Shown piece by piece: positions 1 to 27,064 of a stretch of 27,064 nt of DNA (position 1 is the stretch's first letter; every line of letters begins with the position of its first letter). The notes under the pieces were generated by a model. It saw only the letters and a list, made by a program, of their open reading frames with translations, was not told where the DNA came from and did no database searches. Source of the stretch: a virus. Lineage: Duplodnaviria; Caudoviricetes. Location of the stretch: IMG/VR virus record IMGVR_UViG_3300031519_000176, positions 1 to 27,064 of that record; one strand, given 5' to 3'. The translations under genes were made by a program, and so were the position numbers.

Positions 1-107
1 GAGACACTTCGTTGTCTGTTGCTCGGCTATCTACCAGTACAGCAGCCTCTCCACTAGTGTTGATTACGTCTAGAACAGAGCGAGGAGAAGACGTACCAAT
101 ACCAACG
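1..107. repeat. Direct repeat of 26724..26830
   Basis: Identical except position 91 (a vs c). Confidence 0.95.
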
Positions 108-835
108 CTACCGCCGGAGTCGATACGCATACGCTCAGTGCTTAACGTCTTAAGCGCCATTGAGTCGTCAGCATGATCATAGACGATCTGACCCCTAGCC
201 GTGTTAGACGCATCACTAAAGTCTATAGCGCCAAGGTCGGCATCACTACCGCTTCGCACATCAACCCGTACATCGCCAGTGTCTGTAACCATAAGCTTAC
301 GGCTGCCAGATACAGGAGTGCCGCCAATGCCCACGTTCTCACTAGCATCAATCGTGATAGCCGTGGACGTAGCGTTATCGTCGATGCCGGGGAATAGGGC
401 CGTCTGCGCTGCCGCTTGCGTTGTCGCCCCAGTGCCACCCTGGGAGATTCCCAGAACGCCGTCGACTGTTTTCGCGCCGCCGATATTGATTTTCCAGGAT
501 GTTTTAGTTCCGCTGCCGGCGAATCCAAAAACGTCGACCACCAGGGTAGTAGCGCTATAGCTAGTCACGATACAGTCGAGAAAATTTGTTTGAGGCGCCG
601 CAGCATCCGAAATTCTTAGGGGTGTTCCGGCCTGGTAGGGCTTGCCGGAATCCGCCGTCGTGAATGTTTTGGACCCGATGCCAATAGCCACCGAACTGGT
701 TGACGTCGAATTGTAAATGTCCCCGGCCTGAGTGACGAAATCCTCGAATGCATCGGGCAGTCCGTCGACGTAATTGTTCCCCTCAAAATCTGCCAGGGTA
801 TACGTTCTGCCGTTTAAAGTGATTGGATAGGCCAT
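1..835 (-). CDS. Tail fibre / receptor-binding protein, N-terminal part (long allele), runs off the window start
   Basis: Not in the ORF track. ATG at 835 overlaps the upstream stop (TAATG). Manual translation is open to base 1: MAYPITLNGRTYTLADFEG...GIDDNATSTAITIDASENVGIGGTP...TERMRIDSGGSVGIGTSSPRSVLDV. It continues in frame at 26723 if circular. Confidence 0.9.
   Translation of the reverse strand, partial: MAYPITLNGRTYTLADFEGNNYVDGLPDAFEDFVTQAGDIYNSTSTSSVAIGIGSKTFTTADSGKPYQAGTPLRISDAAAPQTNFLDCIVTSYSATTLVVDVFGFAGSGTKTSWKINIGGAKTVDGVLGISQGGTGATTQAAAQTALFPGIDDNATSTAITIDASENVGIGGTPVSGSRKLMVTDTGDVRVDVRSGSDADLGAIDFSDASNTARGQIVYDHADDSMALKTLSTERMRIDSGGSVGIGTSSPRSVLDVINTSGEAAVLVDSRATDNEVS
336..569. 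repeat. Direct repeat of 26831..27064
   Basis: 234 bp with 9 mismatches by manual alignment, 5 of them clustered at 362..369. Confidence 0.93.
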
Positions 836-8533: not shown

Positions 8534-11185
8534 TTACGCCGTCGTGATGTCCTGCACCGCCGCGAAAGACTCGGCATGGCGAACCGCCACGTCGATGTCC
8601 TGATACATAGCGACACGCACCGCACCCGTTGCAGAGAGCGAATAGGGGTCGATAAGTACATCGAGACCGCCAAACATGCCGATCATTAGATCCGCGAAGT
8701 TTCCGAACACTACCGCCGAACATACACCCGAAGAAGTTCCCTTCGTCAGATCAGACGGAACCAGTGTCGAGCTGGCGACGTTGTAACCTAGCAGGGTATT
8801 GGCATCGTTTAAGATGAAGTTTCCTTCAACGCCACTAGCCTGGCGACCCGTCTGTCGCATAGCTGCCACGACCTTGGGGTTTGTCAGATAAGCCAGGTTG
8901 CCCGCGAGAGCGTTATCGATAGCAACTTCACGCTCCAGGTCAACCATTGAGGCGAACGATACCGCTCCGCCATTGGCTCCCTGTGCAACGCTTCCGATTC
9001 CGCTGGTTCCGAGTATGCCCGTGGGCTCATTTGAACCGCCGCCCTTGATGGCCACTTGGTCGATCTTAGCCGCAAATTGCCGTGTCATATCGTCACGGAT
9101 AATTTGCTCGACACTGGGGTCACTCTGCATCATCAACTTTCGACCGATGTCGACATGCTGAACCAGAGTTTTGGGTGACATGGTGACTTGTCTGAAGGTT
9201 GGCGCGCCCTCGGTAGCGGGTGCGTTGTTTTCAGCCACAAATCCGACCGCCGTTTTGGCGTTCAAAGCCGGGATGGAAACGTCGCCTTTCAAACCCTGCA
9301 TCATGCGAGCGCCCAGGCCAGAGATGACCAGGTTCGCGCGTAATGCATCGATGAACTCACCAGCAAGGTGATCGGTTGCGACTAGATTCGAACCATTCGC
9401 AGGCGAGCCGGTTGTGATATCACGCTTGAAAATGTTGTTCGGCACATAGAATCCGCGCGGCTCTTTGCCGTAACGCTTGGCAAGTTCCTCGGAAACTTCG
9501 CGCTCCAGTCCCTCAAAACGACCAGAGGCAGCACTTCTGATTGCATTGGTAAGCGAGTATTGACGCTGTTCCTTTGCGCTCAGATCGATCTCTGCGACGT
9601 CCAGAGGCTTGTCGGCGATTTTATCCAACAGCGAGCCACGGAATTGGGCAAGATTCATCCCCTGGCGAATAGCCTCATCAGCGAATGAACGCTGGTTGTG
9701 CTTGGCCGCCAGGCCCATGATTTCGTTTATTTCCTTGGATCGTTCGGCCGCAGCTTCAGCGCGCACCTGATCCAAATCGACTTGATTTTCGGGTTCCATT
9801 TTTGGAGCCTCCTTTTCGATAGGTTTAATGGTTGCGTTATCTGGAACTTCGACCGATCGCCCGACACCGACTGACGTATCGGCGGGCAAGCTAACGATAG
9901 AGACTTCCATTATTTCGGAATCTATCACTCGGAACAGATCAGGCTGATCGTTGTCCCTTTCCATCTTCCGAACTTTGTAACCGATCGACACGTTCGAACG
10001 TATGCCGTCGACTACATCCTGGTACACCTCGCTGGCGAGCGCACCCTTTCCAAAGCGCACCGTCGCCCGGAGTCGCCGGGCCGAGCCGTCAAGGCTTACA
10101 GATTCAATGACCCCGATTTGTCGCTCGGGGTCGTGGTCCAATAATAAAGGCGCGTACCCTGAACTTAAAAAATCAAGGTCTAGCGTCTTTTCTGTGTGAA
10201 CAATAACCTCCCGACCGAACGATCGTTCGACCGGCTTCTCACTGGAAACAGACATTTCGACGCGCCGATCGTCTATTTCTTTGATTTCCGAATATTCCAT
10301 TCGGTGAACGACTTCGGATTTGCTGAACCTTTCTTCGGACATTTCTGCCATTTCAGGTTCGGCTTCTTCTTTCTCGTCGTGCGCCTTCGCGAAGGTGATG
10401 ATGATTTCTTCGTCAGTCTCCACGATGTCTTTTATATGTCGCTGCTCCACTTTTCTGTCCTCGCTATCACTCGCCAGGGGATGACCGTCGGGAAAAATAT
10501 CGAGGTCATGCTTTCCACCTTGGAATCTATCATTTTTCAGAGCAAATAAAAACGAATTTACCCTGGCATATCCCCACTGCTCCGGCGAGCCAACGCCAGG
10601 GCGAACCGATCCGGGGTTTGTTTTGTAAGCGCCGATCCCGCGCTCCATGACCTGACGCAACATTCCAATCGTCACGCGGCGCAATGGATCATCACCCACT
10701 TCGTCATTGTGTTCGTCGCGCTTGTTCTCTAGCCCTGTTTCAACTTCGTCGCTCAAATCGCGATCGGCGCGATCATCGTCCTTTTTGCCCTCTAGCTTTT
10801 TGACCAGCTCCAGAATAACGTCCTTCATGCCTTGCTCTCCCAGAGTGCCAGTCACGCCCCACTTCATTTGTGCAACAATACCGCCAACATTGCCCCGGTT
10901 TGGCTCCAAATCGCCGCCACTGAACTGGTCGCCATCCTCAAAATGACGCGCTGCCCAGGCTTCCCGCTCCTTTATCCAGTCCAAAACAGCGCCAGATTCA
11001 TCGCCATCGCGCGCGCGATCCCATAATTTGAACGCATCATTCCCGCGAACATTGCCACCAAGGGCCCAGACCTCGCGATTGAACTCCTGAATATTCTCCG
11101 CAAACCCGCGATCAAACTGTGGATAACTTGAATTCCTTAGCGAAATTTTCAGGTCGTCCCCTTCGGTCGGAAAATCAGTCGCCAT
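8534..11185 (-). CDS. Fused head polyprotein: two extra N-terminal domains + HK97-type prohead protease + scaffold/delta region + HK97-fold major capsid protein
   Basis: Protease motifs PLLLDHD...IG, NVSIGY, EVSIVSLPAD; capsid motifs GEFIDALR, AVGFVAEN, VTMSPKT, GGGSNEPTGI, LLGYNV, VFGNF, DVAVRHAESF. Confidence 0.93.
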   Translation of the reverse strand: MATDFPTEGDDLKISLRNSSYPQFDRGFAENIQEFNREVWALGGNVRGNDAFKLWDRARDGDESGAVLDWIKEREAWAARHFEDGDQFSGGDLEPNRGNVGGIVAQMKWGVTGTLGEQGMKDVILELVKKLEGKKDDDRADRDLSDEVETGLENKRDEHNDEVGDDPLRRVTIGMLRQVMERGIGAYKTNPGSVRPGVGSPEQWGYARVNSFLFALKNDRFQGGKHDLDIFPDGHPLASDSEDRKVEQRHIKDIVETDEEIIITFAKAHDEKEEAEPEMAEMSEERFSKSEVVHRMEYSEIKEIDDRRVEMSVSSEKPVERSFGREVIVHTEKTLDLDFLSSGYAPLLLDHDPERQIGVIESVSLDGSARRLRATVRFGKGALASEVYQDVVDGIRSNVSIGYKVRKMERDNDQPDLFRVIDSEIMEVSIVSLPADTSVGVGRSVEVPDNATIKPIEKEAPKMEPENQVDLDQVRAEAAAERSKEINEIMGLAAKHNQRSFADEAIRQGMNLAQFRGSLLDKIADKPLDVAEIDLSAKEQRQYSLTNAIRSAASGRFEGLEREVSEELAKRYGKEPRGFYVPNNIFKRDITTGSPANGSNLVATDHLAGEFIDALRANLVISGLGARMMQGLKGDVSIPALNAKTAVGFVAENNAPATEGAPTFRQVTMSPKTLVQHVDIGRKLMMQSDPSVEQIIRDDMTRQFAAKIDQVAIKGGGSNEPTGILGTSGIGSVAQGANGGAVSFASMVDLEREVAIDNALAGNLAYLTNPKVVAAMRQTGRQASGVEGNFILNDANTLLGYNVASSTLVPSDLTKGTSSGVCSAVVFGNFADLMIGMFGGLDVLIDPYSLSATGAVRVAMYQDIDVAVRHAESFAAVQDITTA
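9800..9814 (-). promoter_or_regulatory. Internal Shine-Dalgarno for an in-frame capsid start at ATG 9799 (Met463)
   Basis: AAGGAGG 8 nt upstream of an in-frame ATG located at the protease/capsid boundary. Confidence 0.7.
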
Positions 11186-19173: not shown

Positions 19174-19582
19174 TGTTTCCCCTTAGTCTAGAACGCGCGT
19201 CGCGTAGTTTTTCCGCCCTTTCTGGGTCTATTTTTGATAAAAGCCGGCCGATCACCAAAGCGTCGGACTCGCTAATTGTTGACTCACCTTTGGCGATGGC
19301 GCCTTCCATTACCATCAACAAAAAATCACAATATTCAAGGTCTGCTCTTCTGTACGCCTGCGGTTTGTAGTCGTCGCCTTCAACCAGGCCGCGACGTTCA
19401 AGTTCGCGAGCAAGGTCAGAAAACCGACAACCATGTCGACAACCCACCAACAGATCAACGGATTGACCGATTTTTATGTGAAATCGATCATGTCCGCCGC
19501 AAATCGGACATGGGCCCTTGTATTCAGAGCCCGAGCGTCGCAACCCCAGGGAATCGGCGACCATTTGCAGGTCGCCACGCAT
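19163..19582 (-). CDS. Stand-alone primase zinc-ribbon domain protein
   Basis: GLRRSGSEYKGPCPICGGHDRF...CRHGC is the P4 alpha/T7-type primase Zn-binding motif; no catalytic domain follows. Confidence 0.82.
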   Translation of the reverse strand: MRGDLQMVADSLGLRRSGSEYKGPCPICGGHDRFHIKIGQSVDLLVGCRHGCRFSDLARELERRGLVEGDDYKPQAYRRADLEYCDFLLMVMEGAIAKGESTISESDALVIGRLLSKIDPERAEKLRDARSRLRGNNER

Positions 19583-20016
19583 CAGAAGGGAATATCATCC
19601 TCTGCAATTGGATCAAGCGCCGGGGGCCCAACCACGCGAGCTGTCATTGCCTGGGCTGCTTTCGTCACCCTGAACGACTTGGGACGCAGGAAAGAGCCGT
19701 CGTTTTCCAGCAATGCGTCGAGCTGCTTTCCCACAATTTCCACCGGGTTCATCGGGTCGCGCAGCGAATTGCAGCCGCAGGCGATCATTATCTGAGCCAG
19801 TTCCCGACGGGCTATTTCGTCAGCTTTGGGGTTTGGGTGTCCAATATTGAGATTCAGCCAGCACTTGCCGCCAGGCGCGCCCAGCGTCACGGACACGTAT
19901 TGATTGCCCTTTGAACTGGTTTTGTTGATTACTTCTTCAATTTTTACGCTGTGCCACCCTTCCGAAAGTCCGGTTCCGCCGGTTTGGTTGAGATAGTCTT
20001 GGGCATTAAATGACAT
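19582..20016 (-). CDS. Single-stranded DNA-binding protein-like (DUF669-like)
   Basis: 144 aa, KTSSKGNQY, acidic tail ending EDDIPF; follows the Sak4-like gene. Confidence 0.8.
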   Translation of the reverse strand: MSFNAQDYLNQTGGTGLSEGWHSVKIEEVINKTSSKGNQYVSVTLGAPGGKCWLNLNIGHPNPKADEIARRELAQIMIACGCNSLRDPMNPVEIVGKQLDALLENDGSFLRPKSFRVTKAAQAMTARVVGPPALDPIAEDDIPF

Positions 20017-20051
20017 TTTTTATTTCCTCTGTTGTTTAAAAATCACGCTGA

Positions 20052-20780
20052 TTAGCGCAATGCTTTCATAAATTCGGACCAATCCAGCGGCATCTCCGCC
20101 GGCAATCCGAACCGATTTTTTGCCACCCAGGCTGGGCGTTCCTCCGTATACATGACACGTTCACCGGAGCCCGTTCCCCGAGTTCTAACCCGGCCACGAT
20201 CCTCGGTTTTAATTGTCTGATACACCTGGTTCGCAAAAAATATCGCGTCGGAGTGTTCAGAGACTAAATCCGCCGCTTTGTTTTGTAGTTTTATCACGTA
20301 CCGATCAAACGCCTCGGCATCTGGGGCCTCAAAACGCTTGACGGCCGAATGACCGATCAACACGGTCGCCATGCGCTTTTCGGATCGCAAATAATTGACA
20401 CGATCAAGAAATTCTCGCCAATACTTCAGCGCCTCAACGTATCCCCGACCATAGCCGGGTTGCTCGATTGACTGCCATTTATTCGCCTCGCAGGTATGGG
20501 CCCATATCAATGGCTCCAACCAGTCGAGAGAGTCGACGATAAGCGTCCGGTATTCATGCTCGCCCTGTATCAGCGAATCAAGCGCCGACCGCACATCTTG
20601 GTAACTTTTAGGCGTAGGAAACGCATCCGCTTCAATTTTCCCCAGCCCGTCCTCAATGGGCAAAAATATCGGATTCGGGGCCGCAGCGCCGAACGTCGTT
20701 TTTCCGACTCCCGCCGGGCCATAAATCAACACTCTCGGCGGTTTTTTGGCGCCGCCTTTCGTGATGCTTTTCATCTCCAT
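20052..20780 (-). CDS. Sak4-like ssDNA-annealing ATPase (AAA_24)
   Basis: LIYGPAGVGKTTF, IEDG, TLIVDSLDWLE, GYGRGY, LIGHS, AKNRFGLP. Confidence 0.92.
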   Translation of the reverse strand: MEMKSITKGGAKKPPRVLIYGPAGVGKTTFGAAAPNPIFLPIEDGLGKIEADAFPTPKSYQDVRSALDSLIQGEHEYRTLIVDSLDWLEPLIWAHTCEANKWQSIEQPGYGRGYVEALKYWREFLDRVNYLRSEKRMATVLIGHSAVKRFEAPDAEAFDRYVIKLQNKAADLVSEHSDAIFFANQVYQTIKTEDRGRVRTRGTGSGERVMYTEERPAWVAKNRFGLPAEMPLDWSEFMKALR

Positions 20781-21164
20781 TTAAAAGCTCTCCCTTATTA
20801 GTCCACAAAAAAGCTCCAGCGAAATCTCGCAGGAACATCGAAAATCATTTTCGTCATAGATATCGGTCGGGTATGCCACTAAAACCCGCCAGGGCGATCT
20901 GTCAGCGCGGAAACACACCGCTGGCGACTTATCCACCCTCTGCGCTTGCCGCACCGCCTGGGCCCAGAACTGGGCCTTTTCTGCGTTTCCGATATTGGCG
21001 TATCGCTTGCATTCAATCGCGAAATAATCGAGCCCGATCAAATCATGTCCACCGCCAAATGATTGGGCAAGGTTTCGCTGTAGGCGTACCCCGGTTTGAT
21101 CCTCTATTTCACGGATCAATTCGCGCTCCCCGCTGGCGCCCTTGTTTCGACTACTCGCCCCCAT
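20781..21164 (-). CDS. Holliday junction resolvase-like PD-(D/E)xK nuclease
   Basis: SRNKGASGERE...GGHDL...AIECKR...W.QA...PAV.FR...W motif. Confidence 0.85.
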   Translation of the reverse strand: MGASSRNKGASGERELIREIEDQTGVRLQRNLAQSFGGGHDLIGLDYFAIECKRYANIGNAEKAQFWAQAVRQAQRVDKSPAVCFRADRSPWRVLVAYPTDIYDENDFRCSCEISLELFCGLIRESF

Positions 21165-21381
21165 GCCGCCGCTTTTCCTTCATTTTCCGCCATTCCCGTT
21201 TTTGAATTTCTCGCCGATATGCGCCTGGCAGCTGCACCGCAACGCCCAGCAAAAACGCGCCCCACAATGGCGACAGAACCCACCACCATGACCACGCCAA
21301 AAGCCCCGCCAGCTTCAGCCCGACAAATAACAGGATGAAATTATCGATCAGCCGACCCACTCGCTCACTCTGCTCGCTCAC
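21151..21381 (-). CDS. Small membrane protein
   Basis: LKLAGLLAWSWWWVLSPLW motif typical of small phage TM proteins; GGAGG SD before GTG 21381. Confidence 0.7.
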   Translation of the reverse strand: MSEQSERVGRLIDNFILLFVGLKLAGLLAWSWWWVLSPLWGAFLLGVAVQLPGAYRREIQKREWRKMKEKRRHGGE

Positions 21382-21526
21382 GAATAAGCACCTCCGCTTG
21401 AATTCTGCGAACGTCAGGAATTGCACCCTTGCCGCGCCAGATGTAGATCGTCTGCCTCGTCACGCCGAGCGCGCGCGCTGTTTGCGAGACACCGCCGAAA
21501 GCTTTGATGATTTCTTCGAGTTCCAT
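21365..21526 (-). CDS. cro: Cro-like helix-turn-helix regulator (53 aa)
   Basis: IIKAFGGVSQTARALGVTRQTIYIW...IP..R..Q signature; first gene of the leftward operon. Confidence 0.85.
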   Translation of the reverse strand: MELEEIIKAFGGVSQTARALGVTRQTIYIWRGKGAIPDVRRIQAEVLIRERAE

Positions 21527-21543
21527 TTTTCGGTCCGTAGTAT

Positions 21544-21572
21544 TTGACAGGGGAATCCTAACCGCATACATT
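21544..21572 (+). promoter_or_regulatory. Sigma70 promoter for the exonuclease gene
   Basis: TTGACA-17 nt-TACATT. Confidence 0.7.
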
Positions 21573-21584
21573 TGCCTGTGTCAA
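21555..21584 (-). promoter_or_regulatory. Sigma70 promoter for the cro/replication operon
   Basis: TTGACA-18 nt-TAGGAT on the minus strand, overlapping the rightward promoter. Confidence 0.65.
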
Positions 21585-21615
21585 ATTTTTATACATCAAA
21601 AGGTTGGAGTGTCGC

Positions 21616-22548
21616 ATGGTTGGAAAATTATCAGATGATCGAAAAATGTCCGGTTCAAGAATCCCGATTCTTTACTGTTGGAATCATGGGGTGCCACATC
21701 CCTGGTCAACGCCAAACGACGAACTCCGAAAGTCAATTCAGGCAAGCGCCGGGGAATATAAATCGTTCGACATTGGGGAGCCTGGAATTGTGGGTAATCT
21801 ACTTGAGCCGGCCCTGGTTGAAAGTGCTTGCGAGAGCCTGGGCCTTCCCAGTCCCGAATTGACCCCGGCCGTTTATAAAACAGAGACGTTTGAAGCGAGC
21901 TGCGACGGACTGGTTCAGGTCGATGATCCGGTAACGGTTTTCAGCGATGGGATTATTCAAGTCGAGGGCGGCGAGCTGGTTTTGTCGGGCTCGGTCCCTA
22001 TTGAGTGCAAATGCACCATTGCGCCGCCAACGGATGAGATTCCCTTGTACCGGGGACCGATTCAGCTGCAAGCCCAAATGTTGGCCACGAAATCAGATTT
22101 TGGGATCATCATCACCCTGCACCGAGGCATTGAACGTCGGATTCATGTGGTCAAAGCCAACCCGGTGATTCAATCCGAAATCAATCAGATTTGCGCGGAA
22201 TTTCAATCTCGGGTACTGACTGAGCGATGGTATCCCCCGGTCAACGTCGACGACGCTGTGATACCTCCCGCAGCGAACGAAAAAACATCGGTCGACGTTC
22301 CGCATCTGGTTGAAGAAATAAGCGACCTGGAGCGATTGCGGAGCGAGAGGGCCGATATCGACGAGCAGATTGCAGGGCTGGAATTGAAAATAATGGATTC
22401 GCTGGGCGAGGCTCAAATGGGAACCTCGGGGCCCTACCTGGTCGAATGGCCGGTTCGGCATTACAAGGAACAGCCGGAAAAGGTCACGCCGGCCAAACCG
22501 GCCCGAACGATACGTTTGAAAACGCTAAAAATTCGCGCTATGGTGTAA
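21616..22548 (+). CDS. YqaJ / lambda-exonuclease family nuclease
   Basis: SGS...PWSTP, GNLLEP, ASCDG, IECK, IQLQAQM; GGAG SD before ATG 21616; terminator downstream. Confidence 0.88.
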   Translation: MVGKLSDDRKMSGSRIPILYCWNHGVPHPWSTPNDELRKSIQASAGEYKSFDIGEPGIVGNLLEPALVESACESLGLPSPELTPAVYKTETFEASCDGLVQVDDPVTVFSDGIIQVEGGELVLSGSVPIECKCTIAPPTDEIPLYRGPIQLQAQMLATKSDFGIIITLHRGIERRIHVVKANPVIQSEINQICAEFQSRVLTERWYPPVNVDDAVIPPAANEKTSVDVPHLVEEISDLERLRSERADIDEQIAGLELKIMDSLGEAQMGTSGPYLVEWPVRHYKEQPEKVTPAKPARTIRLKTLKIRAMV

Positions 22549-24755: not shown

Positions 24756-25076
24756 TCACCCATCTTTTTGATCATAAGACCCATCTTTTTGGTCACCTGC
24801 CCCTTCCTCTACAACGACTTTTTCATTGCAGACAGCAGAGTTGCCGCCAAAAGTGAGGCTATTGTCTAAACAGACCTCTGTAACCTCTACAACTGGAGTC
24901 AACGGGCGAAGGTCAAAGCCGCCCGCGTTAAACCTAGTAAACGTCCATGCAGTATTTTCTTCAACGTAAACCTTAGAGCCGACAGGCAAGTCAATAACAG
25001 TACCGTCAGCTAAGTAAATCTCAGCAGCAGACGCGGTAAAAGCAACTAAAGCTAATAGGAAAGTTAATGCCTTCAT
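24756..25076 (-). CDS. Exported protein with Sec signal peptide
   Basis: MKALTFLLALVAFTASA|AEIY; two Cys; coupled by ATGA to the upstream lipoprotein gene. Confidence 0.75.
   Translation of the reverse strand: MKALTFLLALVAFTASAAEIYLADGTVIDLPVGSKVYVEENTAWTFTRFNAGGFDLRPLTPVVEVTEVCLDNSLTFGGNSAVCNEKVVVEEGAGDQKDGSYDQKDG
24758..24795. repeat. Imperfect tandem duplication, 21-bp period
   Basis: acccatctttttgatca (24758..24774) and acccatctttttggtca (24779..24795); encodes DQKDG twice. Confidence 0.75.
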
Positions 25077-25213
25077 TTTTTAATGTCCTTTGTTTGCGTC
25101 TCAGTTTCAACTTCGGTGTGAGAACAGAAGCCCAGACAGATCGTAGATTTCTCTCGTAGTGTGCCTGAGCATCCAGTGAGTAACACGAGTGCTAGGGCTG
25201 CTAAGAGTTTCAT
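25073..25213 (-). CDS. Small lipoprotein (46 aa)
   Basis: Not in ORF track. MKLLAALALVLLTG|CSGTLREKSTICLGFCSHTEVETETQTKDIKK; LTGC lipobox; ATGA overlaps with both neighbours. Confidence 0.85.
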   Translation of the reverse strand: MKLLAALALVLLTGCSGTLREKSTICLGFCSHTEVETETQTKDIKK

Positions 25214-25557
25214 GCTGCCCAAGGAGCGCCTGTGCCACGAGTAGGATTGGCTTTCTCGTCAATCTGAGCCTGAATAGAGGCTTCTACAGACTCCTGCTCG
25301 GTAGGCGTGTCATCCATCTTATTTGTAGCCATGTCAGCCATGAGCCAACCTAGTACGGTATCCTCAGTGATGTTATCCCAAGGCATGAAGTCATCCGCAG
25401 AAGCGTCTGGGAGGGCCTTGGTGCCGTAAGCGGAACCTACGTTACCGTCTGCATCTACACCTGTGCAGCGCCAGTGGGCTACAGTGGCTACGTTATCTAG
25501 ACCATCTTTGGATACTTCGTAGTCTAAGGATGAAATTGTCCATGTAATCGTTGTCAT
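25210..25557 (-). CDS. Tail-fibre-associated protein (putative fibre assembly chaperone)
   Basis: 115 aa directly after the fibre; TITWTI...VAHWRC...F.PW..ITE..VLGW...PW pattern typical of genes after S74-type fibres. Confidence 0.65.
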   Translation of the reverse strand: MTTITWTISSLDYEVSKDGLDNVATVAHWRCTGVDADGNVGSAYGTKALPDASADDFMPWDNITEDTVLGWLMADMATNKMDDTPTEQESVEASIQAQIDEKANPTRGTGAPWAA

Positions 25558-25560
25558 TCT

Positions 25561-27064
25561 TTATGCTCCTTTGAGTGCCGCTACTTCGGCCTGTAGTGTT
25601 TCAATCATTGCTTGTTGCTCTTGGACGGCCTTCAGTAGTACAGGGATGGTCTCCGTGTACTTCATAGAAAGGGTACCGTCCTCGTCCTTGTCAACGACAT
25701 TAGGGAACGTGTTCTCCCAGTCTTGTGCAATGAAGCCAACCTTGTCAGCAGCTTCAGACTCAGTAGCTTTAAGGCTGTAGTTGACACACCGGAAGTCCTT
25801 AATGGTGTCGAGTACAGGGCCGATGTCGCTGATGTTTTCCTTTAGGTTCTCATCAGAGGTAGCTGTCCACGCAGTCGCACCATCAGTAAGTACAACTCCA
25901 GTGTTACCATTGTTCTGAACATAGAGAGCATTTACGCTTGAAGTCCACATACGCATAAACTTACCAGCAGTGGAGCCAGAGTGGCGCATACCGATCCCAG
26001 CCTCTCCGTTTACAGCGGCTTCTACTTGAACCTTTGTTGCTACGCTTGTGATGCCAGTGGAGGTATTAACCAGCAAGTTACCTGAGGCGTCGATACGCAT
26101 ACGCTCAATGTTGCTGGTACTCCAACGCTGATATCCGACGTTTGGGTTCTCGTAATGAATACCTCCTGTAGTCGCCGTCCCGTCTATAGTGAGATTAAGG
26201 GTCTGCGTAACATCATCCGACAACCTAATAGCTGTTTCGTTTGTCGCTGTCGCTGTCTTCACTTGTAGCTTTACCGCAGGGCTTGATTGGTTGATGCCCA
26301 CGTTACCAGCGGAGTTGATTGTCATGGCTTGTACAGGTGTTGCGTAGGTACTAGAAGTCCAGAAACCCAAGTTACAGTTTGGTCCAGCAGCCGCAGCACT
26401 GTTGTACGCCCTCATTCCTCCTGCGTCCCTCGCGCCTCCACCGGACGGGTCGCCTACATAGTATGAAAGACGGCCTAACTCCATTCCGCTTGTCCATGAT
26501 TTTGATTCGCGGTTTGCTATATATATGGCTGGCGGAGAGGTTGAGCTTGAGACATCTAAGTTAGCTAATGGTCCATCAGTACCAATACCAACGTTACCGC
26601 TGGAGTCGATGGTTACATGCTTTGTTGCAAGGTTAGTAGCGTTGCTCAGTGACAACACGCCCCCAGAGTGCTGAAGAACACCGCCAGTGTTTGCTCCAGC
26701 TGTTTTAGTTAGTAGACTTAGTCGAGACACTTCGTTGTCTGTTGCTCGGCTATCTACCAGTACAGCAGCCTCTCCACTAGTGTTGATTACGTCTAGAACA
26801 GAGCGAGGAGAAGCCGTACCAATACCAACGTTCTCACTAGCATCAATCGTGATAGCTGTAGCATTAGCGTTATCGTCGATGCCGGGGAATAGGGCCGTCT
26901 GCGCTGCCGCTTGCGTTGTCGCCCCAGTGCCACCCTGGGAGATTCCCAAAACGCCGTCGACTGTTTTCGCGCCGCCGATATTGATTTTCCAGGATGTTTT
27001 AGTTCCGCTGCCGGCGAATCCAAAAACGTCGACCACCAGGGTGGTACCGCTGTAGCTAGTCACG
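25561..27064 (-). CDS. Tail fibre / receptor-binding protein (short allele), 5' end outside this end of the window, with C-terminal peptidase S74 intramolecular chaperone
   Basis: Repeated (G/E)NVGI...(ERMR)ID modules; SDENLKENI, GFIAQD, YTETIPVLLKAVQEQQ coiled coil. True start corresponds to ATG 835 if circular. Confidence 0.92.
   Translation of the reverse strand, partial: VTSYSGTTLVVDVFGFAGSGTKTSWKINIGGAKTVDGVLGISQGGTGATTQAAAQTALFPGIDDNANATAITIDASENVGIGTASPRSVLDVINTSGEAAVLVDSRATDNEVSRLSLLTKTAGANTGGVLQHSGGVLSLSNATNLATKHVTIDSSGNVGIGTDGPLANLDVSSSTSPPAIYIANRESKSWTSGMELGRLSYYVGDPSGGGARDAGGMRAYNSAAAAGPNCNLGFWTSSTYATPVQAMTINSAGNVGINQSSPAVKLQVKTATATNETAIRLSDDVTQTLNLTIDGTATTGGIHYENPNVGYQRWSTSNIERMRIDASGNLLVNTSTGITSVATKVQVEAAVNGEAGIGMRHSGSTAGKFMRMWTSSVNALYVQNNGNTGVVLTDGATAWTATSDENLKENISDIGPVLDTIKDFRCVNYSLKATESEAADKVGFIAQDWENTFPNVVDKDEDGTLSMKYTETIPVLLKAVQEQQAMIETLQAEVAALKGA

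Follow-up and report, generated by a model that had tools for sequence, protein, structure and literature searches.

Receptor-binding fibres of phages are diversified by invertible cassettes (Gin/Cin, shufflons) and by diversity-generating retroelements. The virus record IMGVR_UViG_3300031519_000176, from a small marine phage, carries a tail-fibre gene in which successive modules are joined by similar DNA, and this locus raises the question of how such a fibre could be rearranged in a phage in which, unlike those systems, neither an invertase with inverted sites nor a reverse transcriptase is found. An earlier note had proposed that short homologies at the junctions act as crossover points for annealing by the phage's own proteins. 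Here, the window is the whole record of 27,064 bases.

The fibre gene and its alleles

Pfam and PHROGs searches identified lambda-like siphophage genes in the record, i.e., a gpA terminase, a lambda portal, a protease-capsid fusion and a tape measure; the nearest isolate terminases are 55-58% identical. The 883-aa fusion (window 8534-11185) combines a DUF5824-like N-terminal part with a prohead protease and the major capsid protein. The contig ends overlap twice, with 1..107 matching 26724..26830 at 99% and 324..569 matching 26819..27064 at 96%, and the contig joint 124->1 is present in sequencing runs X1-X3. Judged by its sequence, the record is one 26,723-bp circle read beyond its own start, and on the same grounds its two terminal ORFs (2..835 and 25561..27063) represent two alleles of a single tail-fibre gene. 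Because of this overlap 93..107 and 26816..26830 are one site, and the 15-mer reported at 93, 26579 and 26816, while present at all three positions, occurs at only two sites per genome. The long allele is ordered as anchor, J0, M1, J1, M2, J2, M3, J3, M4, J4, M5 and S74 chaperone, and the features of the locus are as follows (L261 is a podovirus-type relative).

389..835, minus strand: N-terminal anchor of the fibre gene, with backbone-like codon usage (chi2 p 0.98 against the backbone)
317..364, minus strand: junction J0 of the long allele, TAITIDASENVGIGGT; contig pile-up
108..335, minus strand: 228-bp in-frame block (M1 plus one junction), long allele only; ends ambiguous by ~3 bases
89..136, minus strand: junction J1, ERMRIDSGGSVGIGTS; contains both motifs of the earlier note
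1..107, no strand assigned: terminal overlap, same locus as 26724..26830
26812..26859, minus strand: J0/J1 junction of the short allele; resembles the first junction of L261
26623..26811, minus strand: module M2 interior; 72% aa matches in other fibres
26575..26622, minus strand: junction J2, KHVTIDSSGNVGIGTD
26332..26574, minus strand: module M3 interior; 68-77% aa matches
26284..26331, minus strand: junction J3, QAMTINSAGNVGINQS
26107..26283, minus strand: module M4 interior; 77-93% aa matches, DNA match to L261
26059..26106, minus strand: junction J4, ERMRIDASGNLLVNTS
25561..26058, minus strand: tip module M5, with the intramolecular chaperone Peptidase_S74 at about 25693-25857 (PF13884)
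24756..25557, minus strand: DUF7936 gene and 106-aa gene, downstream of the fibre, shared with L261
21604..22548, plus strand: RecE-like exonuclease (phrog_434, E 2.5e-13)
19582..21164, minus strand: SSB, Sak4-like annealase and RusA-like resolvase (PHROGs), possible helpers

The anchor was found in 50 related loci, and those inspected bear different distal parts. In L015, L019, L021, L025 and L038 it is joined to another kind of repeat fibre, with NTA[VI]G repeats; going by these arrangements, the anchor accepts unrelated distal architectures.

The fibre modules are 60-85 residues each and are joined by one conserved motif. The C-terminal Peptidase_S74 match (PF13884, E 1.6e-11) is above the cut-off and places the protein among the S74 fibres. 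A monomer model of M2-M4 (pLDDT 82) consists of strands nearly throughout and matches the Bdellovibrio MAT fibres and T5 pb1 (Foldseek 8OND, E 1.7e-6; Z 11.3 and rmsd 1.6 over 84 residues for 8OML), and a profile match to Bd2133 (8OND, E 3.7e-34) carries the same ERMRID-GNLGLG joint. Excerpts of Caulton et al. (PMC10769870) describe a V-G-G/N-x-X-X-P-X-X-X-L capping-loop motif between the beta-helix regions of MAT/S74 fibres, together with tip swapping. The junction consensus VGIGTxSPxxxL fits the capping motif V-G-x-x-x-x-P-x-x-x-L, as would be expected of a MAT-type beta-rich module. By analogy with this family, the fibre would be an S74/MAT-type triple beta-helix, presumably an intertwined homotrimer that undergoes autoproteolysis. 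Since the joint overlaps the capping-loop motif, protein selection favours the joint too; its double role as folding boundary and homology block accounts for the conserved protein sequence and for some of the breakpoint bias, whereas the synonymous identity described below is left unexplained by it.

The short allele lacks 228 bp, the indel is in frame and, as had been claimed, both of its ends lie inside the ENVGIG / GSVGIG junction. Allele evidence from X1-X3, any one of which may be the run from which the window came, rests on assembled contigs, in which the long form is dominant, with a depth of 20, 16.8 and 15.5 in runs X1, X2 and X3, respectively. Could the mosaics be assembly chimeras, created at junction words that different sequences have in common? 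Two alleles are indeed joined in the contig, the data are contigs, and many unrelated contigs stack on the junctions, those on J0 having a summed depth of 421 against 20 in X1. However, one 949-nt contig in X1 spans M4 through M1, the short (skipped) form is a separate 111-nt contig in X2 (depth 4.8, 0 differences), and every signal recurs in 21 cultured phages, which makes chimerism extremely improbable. Module shuffling at the joints also accounts for the way in which these genes are split or fused when metagenomes are assembled.

The junctions either side of M1 have only 3-5 exact bases in common at the breakpoint, and the short and long alleles differ at 5 further sites just upstream of it; therefore, replacement fits better than a clean deletion. 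Loss of M1 by simple looping-out at direct repeats was considered and is disfavoured, with flanks that share so few exact bases. The J0 of the short allele (26887-26802) is 93% identical over 86 nt to the first junction of L261, and M1 in P0005 and L177 is preceded by the NATSTAITIDAS form of the long allele. These sequences suggest that the M1 indel arose when a patch was replaced through crossovers in two places, the identical GIDDNA stretch of 19 nt and the VGIG stretch.

Junction DNA in the window and in related genes

Two matches reported earlier were found as described, i.e., a 19-mer that is exact at 119 and 26089 and a match of 30/32 bases between 93..124 and 26579..26610; no inverted junction copies were found on the opposite strand of the record. 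The module interiors had been called unrelated, but they are not entirely so, since module 2 aligns with module 3 (25% over 59 aa, E 5e-4). The claim that synonymous positions are conserved holds as an excess over the codon expectation, but the excess in the window is modest and the earlier note had cited the best pairs. Across 14 junction pairs, 47/100 synonymous sites share a codon where about 36 are expected, and only 3 of the 14 pairs, each of which involves the junction that follows module 1, are clearly elevated. In the long allele, the five junctions share 35 codons against 25.2 expected (P 0.02), or 40 against 26.0 if the short-allele J0 is added (P 0.002), and the best pair of the window has 8 identical codons (P 0.006).

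Related loci were gathered by the anchor (50), by M1 (80) and by an exact junction 18-mer (121). L056-L176, which were picked by an exact DNA motif, were excluded from the codon tests and retained in the breakpoint test; the 216 ORFs were reduced to 190 by dereplication, and 88 genes with 252 junctions entered the codon test, in which junction pairs are not mutually independent. Within these 88 dereplicated genes, synonymous identity between junctions was 0.588 against 0.383 expected, whereas pairs from different genes showed no excess (0.344 against 0.347). A universal junction DNA sequence was rejected on that between-gene figure. With related interiors removed, the within-gene value was 0.585 (274 pairs), compared to an expectation of 0.380 from interior usage, 0.386 from backbone usage and 0.409 from the larger of the two, and 41-42 of 48 genes were above expectation. 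Codon bias alone therefore fails to account for junction identity. In 900 permutations of junctions among genes of similar GC the maximum was 0.474, below the observed 0.588, and exact runs of at least 20 nt were found in 62/380 within-gene pairs against 1.4 expected.

GC-matched pairs from different loci reached 0.391 against 0.357, and different fibre genes of the same locus reached 0.537 against 0.356. The within-gene excess, without an overall between-gene excess, indicates that joints are homogenised per gene or pool and not universally. This reading is weakened by other conserved motifs, which likewise exceed expectation between genes, at up to 0.515 against 0.401. As a control for artefacts, 21 cultured phages (33 ORFs, 122 junctions) were analysed, and within-gene identity was 0.558 against 0.382-0.421 expected, with 18-20 of 23 genes above; several isolate genes are at chance against the stricter null (S-CBP1, S-CBP3, S-CBP4 and S-B28), and a number of Synechococcus podovirus genes are near chance. 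In L177 (5860-11385), three tandem fibre genes each start with a GIDDNA-TAITID entry junction and have a common junction spelling.

These data bear on a reading in which modules are joined anywhere, independently of homology, only joins at the structural joint fold, and the likeness of joints stems from codon context or from old tandem duplications. The overlap of the motif with the capping-loop consensus of solved MAT/S74 fibres (excerpts of PMC10769870), the module interiors as remote homologues and the few exact bases shared by the indel flanks are all in its favour. Yet synonymous sites cannot be fixed by protein selection, and the joint spellings are gene-specific and above GC-matched permutations even where the interiors lack detectable similarity, so that we consider this reading unlikely. 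The sequences are better explained, in our judgement with good probability, by motif-guided shuffling of the fibre, i.e., by general homology-guided exchange that is filtered by the fold.

Module order and breakpoints among phages

For the breakpoint test, shared DNA blocks of at least 120 nt and at least 80% identity were used, and a block end was counted if it lay within 36 nt of a junction centre. In the modular zone, 42/52 block ends were at junctions (18.2 expected), as were 44/123 over whole genes (15.7 expected), although these counts are non-independent and BLAST extends through conserved joints. Cultured isolates gave 23/30 in-zone ends at junctions against 9.3, with block ends that were not dereplicated and many of which are at the first junction. 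Protein selection would also be expected to produce breakpoint enrichment.

An unknown site-specific recombinase acting at the joint, or a functional RNA/DNA signal there, supplied in trans, could give the long exact runs at joints and would suit the 12/18 near-complete carriers in which no annealase was detected. But the joint spelling varies between genes and pools, there are no inverted copies, the breakpoints are scattered across about 60 nt, and no recombinase is encoded; of all the readings weighed here we give this one the least credence.

The same modules were found in different fibres. L180 and L237 have one module in common (97% over 211 nt) at different positions and behind unrelated anchors, another is common to L192, L198, L203 and L184, and the cultured phages HTVC120P and Kolga, the latter of which we take to be a siphovirus, have one module in common (95.5% over 311 nt). 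Four of the five window modules (M1-M4) recur in other fibres in other orders: M1 has matches at 93% aa in P0005 and 75% in L177-L179, M2 at 72% aa in P0006 and P0009, where the neighbours differ, M3 at 68-77% aa in P0002, P0003, P0004 and P0008, at other positions, and M4 at 77-93% aa in P0005, P0007, P0011 and P0012. Among the proteins that were fetched, M5 had no match other than itself, and a close relative of M3 was not found in viral contigs. The idea of a shared module pool, drawn on in differing order by unrelated phages with breakpoints at junctions, is thus borne out by L180/L237, by the block ends and by M1-M4; the opposite pattern, a fixed module order with random breakpoints, was not what was observed.

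A further partner of the window is L261, whose terminase, portal and capsid families differ from those of the record and whose backbone gave no blastn match to it. The two share M4 from junction to junction (86.6% DNA identity over 239 nt) and an 847-nt block (window 24756-25647, comprising the last bases of the fibre, the DUF7936 gene and the 106-aa gene) that is 89.6% identical. Third-position T is 0.35 in the module interiors of the window against 0.19 in the backbone (p 2e-12), and the genes of L261 are likewise T-rich; the anchor, by its codon usage, belongs with the backbone. This composition suggests that a podovirus-type pool was the source from which the phage acquired the distal fibre and the pair of genes downstream of it. 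The L261 capsid had no isolate match >60%. The 24756-25647 block is also 83% identical to L082 and seems to travel with these fibres; it might encode a chaperone or an accessory protein of the fibre. Contigs also pile up on, and DNA is shared at, the C-terminal coiled-coil end of the fibre (window 25552-25689), which is likely a further crossover block outside the repeat motif.

Enzymes, known systems and hosts

PHROGs matches place an SSB at 19582-20016, a Sak4-like protein at 20052-20780 and a RusA-like resolvase at 20781-21164, as the earlier note had reported; the exonuclease is RecE-like by PHROGs, and no YqaJ match was found with Pfam. Searches of all six frames of the record for serine recombinases, tyrosine recombinases and reverse transcriptases found none and detected the positive controls, in agreement with the claim that no invertase, reverse transcriptase or dedicated recombinase is encoded. 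A small transcription regulator lies divergent from the RecE-like gene, the sole long plus-strand gene (window 21365-22548), with no integrase.

That the phage's own Sak4-SSB-exonuclease-resolvase set is a specific shuffling engine would agree with the presence of all four genes, and excerpts of PMC5928155 report that Sak4 with its SSB anneals single strands. However, the same excerpts term Sak4 a weak annealase, and Sak4 was found in 7/40 fibre-carrier records (one weak) and in only 3/18 near-complete ones, so that it does not track the fibre type; ERF, RecT and a sub-threshold Rad52 match add one each among the latter. In five genes from complete genomes without detected Sak4, ERF, RecT or Rad52, homogenisation was still 0.547 against 0.366. 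It follows from both observations that Sak4 is not required, and the proposal of this set as the specific agent, which goes unsupported, seems very unlikely to be correct. Remote annealases may have been missed in carriers; a search for T7 gp2.5 gave no match anywhere, positive controls included.

Of the earlier claim that short junction homologies are crossover points, the uniform DNA and the breakpoints at joints stand, while annealing specific to this phage and loop-out do not. In the exchange that we favour, general recombination would use the short DNA homology of the motif as an in-frame crossover point, and crossovers would insert, replace and move whole modules, homogenising the joints meanwhile. 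Co-infection of a cell would provide the setting, and the annealing or strand exchange might be carried out by any available enzyme, i.e., the phage Sak4/SSB here and other annealases or host RecA elsewhere. Selection would retain only those joins that keep the triple beta-helix intact, and swaps would alter host binding or fibre length.

The principle is already known from T-even phages, and the present fibre is a clear new case of it. In T-even gp37/gp38, exchanges occur within or near conserved motifs, according to excerpts of PMC3157838 that summarise Tetart 1996 and 1998. The likeness extends to variable segments between conserved motifs, segment duplication and the lack of a dedicated recombinase, and exchange points were found in or near the motifs here as well (the 42/52 and 23/30 block ends). 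By comparison, the present motif, ERMRID-xx-GNVGIG, sits in a triple-beta-helix S74 fibre, and entire modules of 60-100 aa vary in position and in number and cross podovirus, siphovirus and myovirus groups, whereas gp38, as the excerpts have it, is strictly syntenic in its motifs. Three points had escaped the earlier note, i.e., that the junction is a structural element, that the contig ends are alleles and that T-even adhesins had established the principle.

The fibre has the same repeat and fold as Bdellovibrio MAT and S74 fibres (Bd2133 8OND, Bd1334 8OML, Bd3182; T5 pb1 4UW8), with the capping-loop motif, S74 end and mosaic tips described in excerpts of PMC10769870, but it is phage-borne, and the same excerpts treat tip swapping at the protein level and not homogenisation of joint DNA. 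In DoMo (domain movement), the domains encoded by type I restriction-modification specificity genes shift from one position or gene to another and vary in number, probably via recombination at flanking repeats (excerpts of PMC3077401). The modules here behave similarly; DoMo, by contrast, has two or three slots and concerns DNA-binding domains of bacteria, and the present system has 1-10 slots in a structural fibre of unrelated phages. A long-read study found 100-300-bp variants in marine phage tail genes and, in the text available, named no mechanism (PMC12379486); excerpts of PMC7468147 describe module pools whose members are interchangeable. The literature search found no paper on DNA-level homogenisation of the joint; Supplementary Fig. 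18 of PMC10769870 (capping loops) may bear on it. GNVGIG or NVGIGT was absent among the matches listed by a literature text search, which were unrelated.

The fibre family, with 93 matching records, is present among phages that infect SAR11, Roseobacter, Synechococcus and Prochlorococcus. The result points to fibre remodelling in those phages module by module, across morphotypes and without a dedicated enzyme, likely, by analogy, a known way for phages to change host recognition; cultured pairs, e.g., HTVC120P and Kolga, render the mechanism testable. The host of the window was not indicated by its joint spelling, which picked none of the host groups of the cultured phages. The sole genome match for the anchor is L283:8001-8438; this 15.6-kb contig belongs to a MAG with the label Rubripirellula and is probably a mis-binned phage and not a host assignment. 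Tentatively, and with some doubt, the ERMRID-GNVGIG joint might serve throughout the ocean as an in-frame adapter, with a codon "dialect" that marks out communities of module exchange, which would span phage families and be bounded by shared hosts. If so, joint spelling would reveal which phages co-infect the same cells, and ready recruitment would be limited to modules of the same dialect. No dialect of whole groups was found for Pelagibacter phages (0.507 against 0.492) or Synechococcus phages (0.339 against 0.346). The nearest dialect neighbours were from the same host group for 15/21 cultured phages, and dialect followed host clearly only in four Roseobacter phages, which belong to different groups and have one dialect in common, with 0.625 against 0.338 (L265 CRP-823, L264 CRP-1, L268 CRP-7 and L282 CRP-5).
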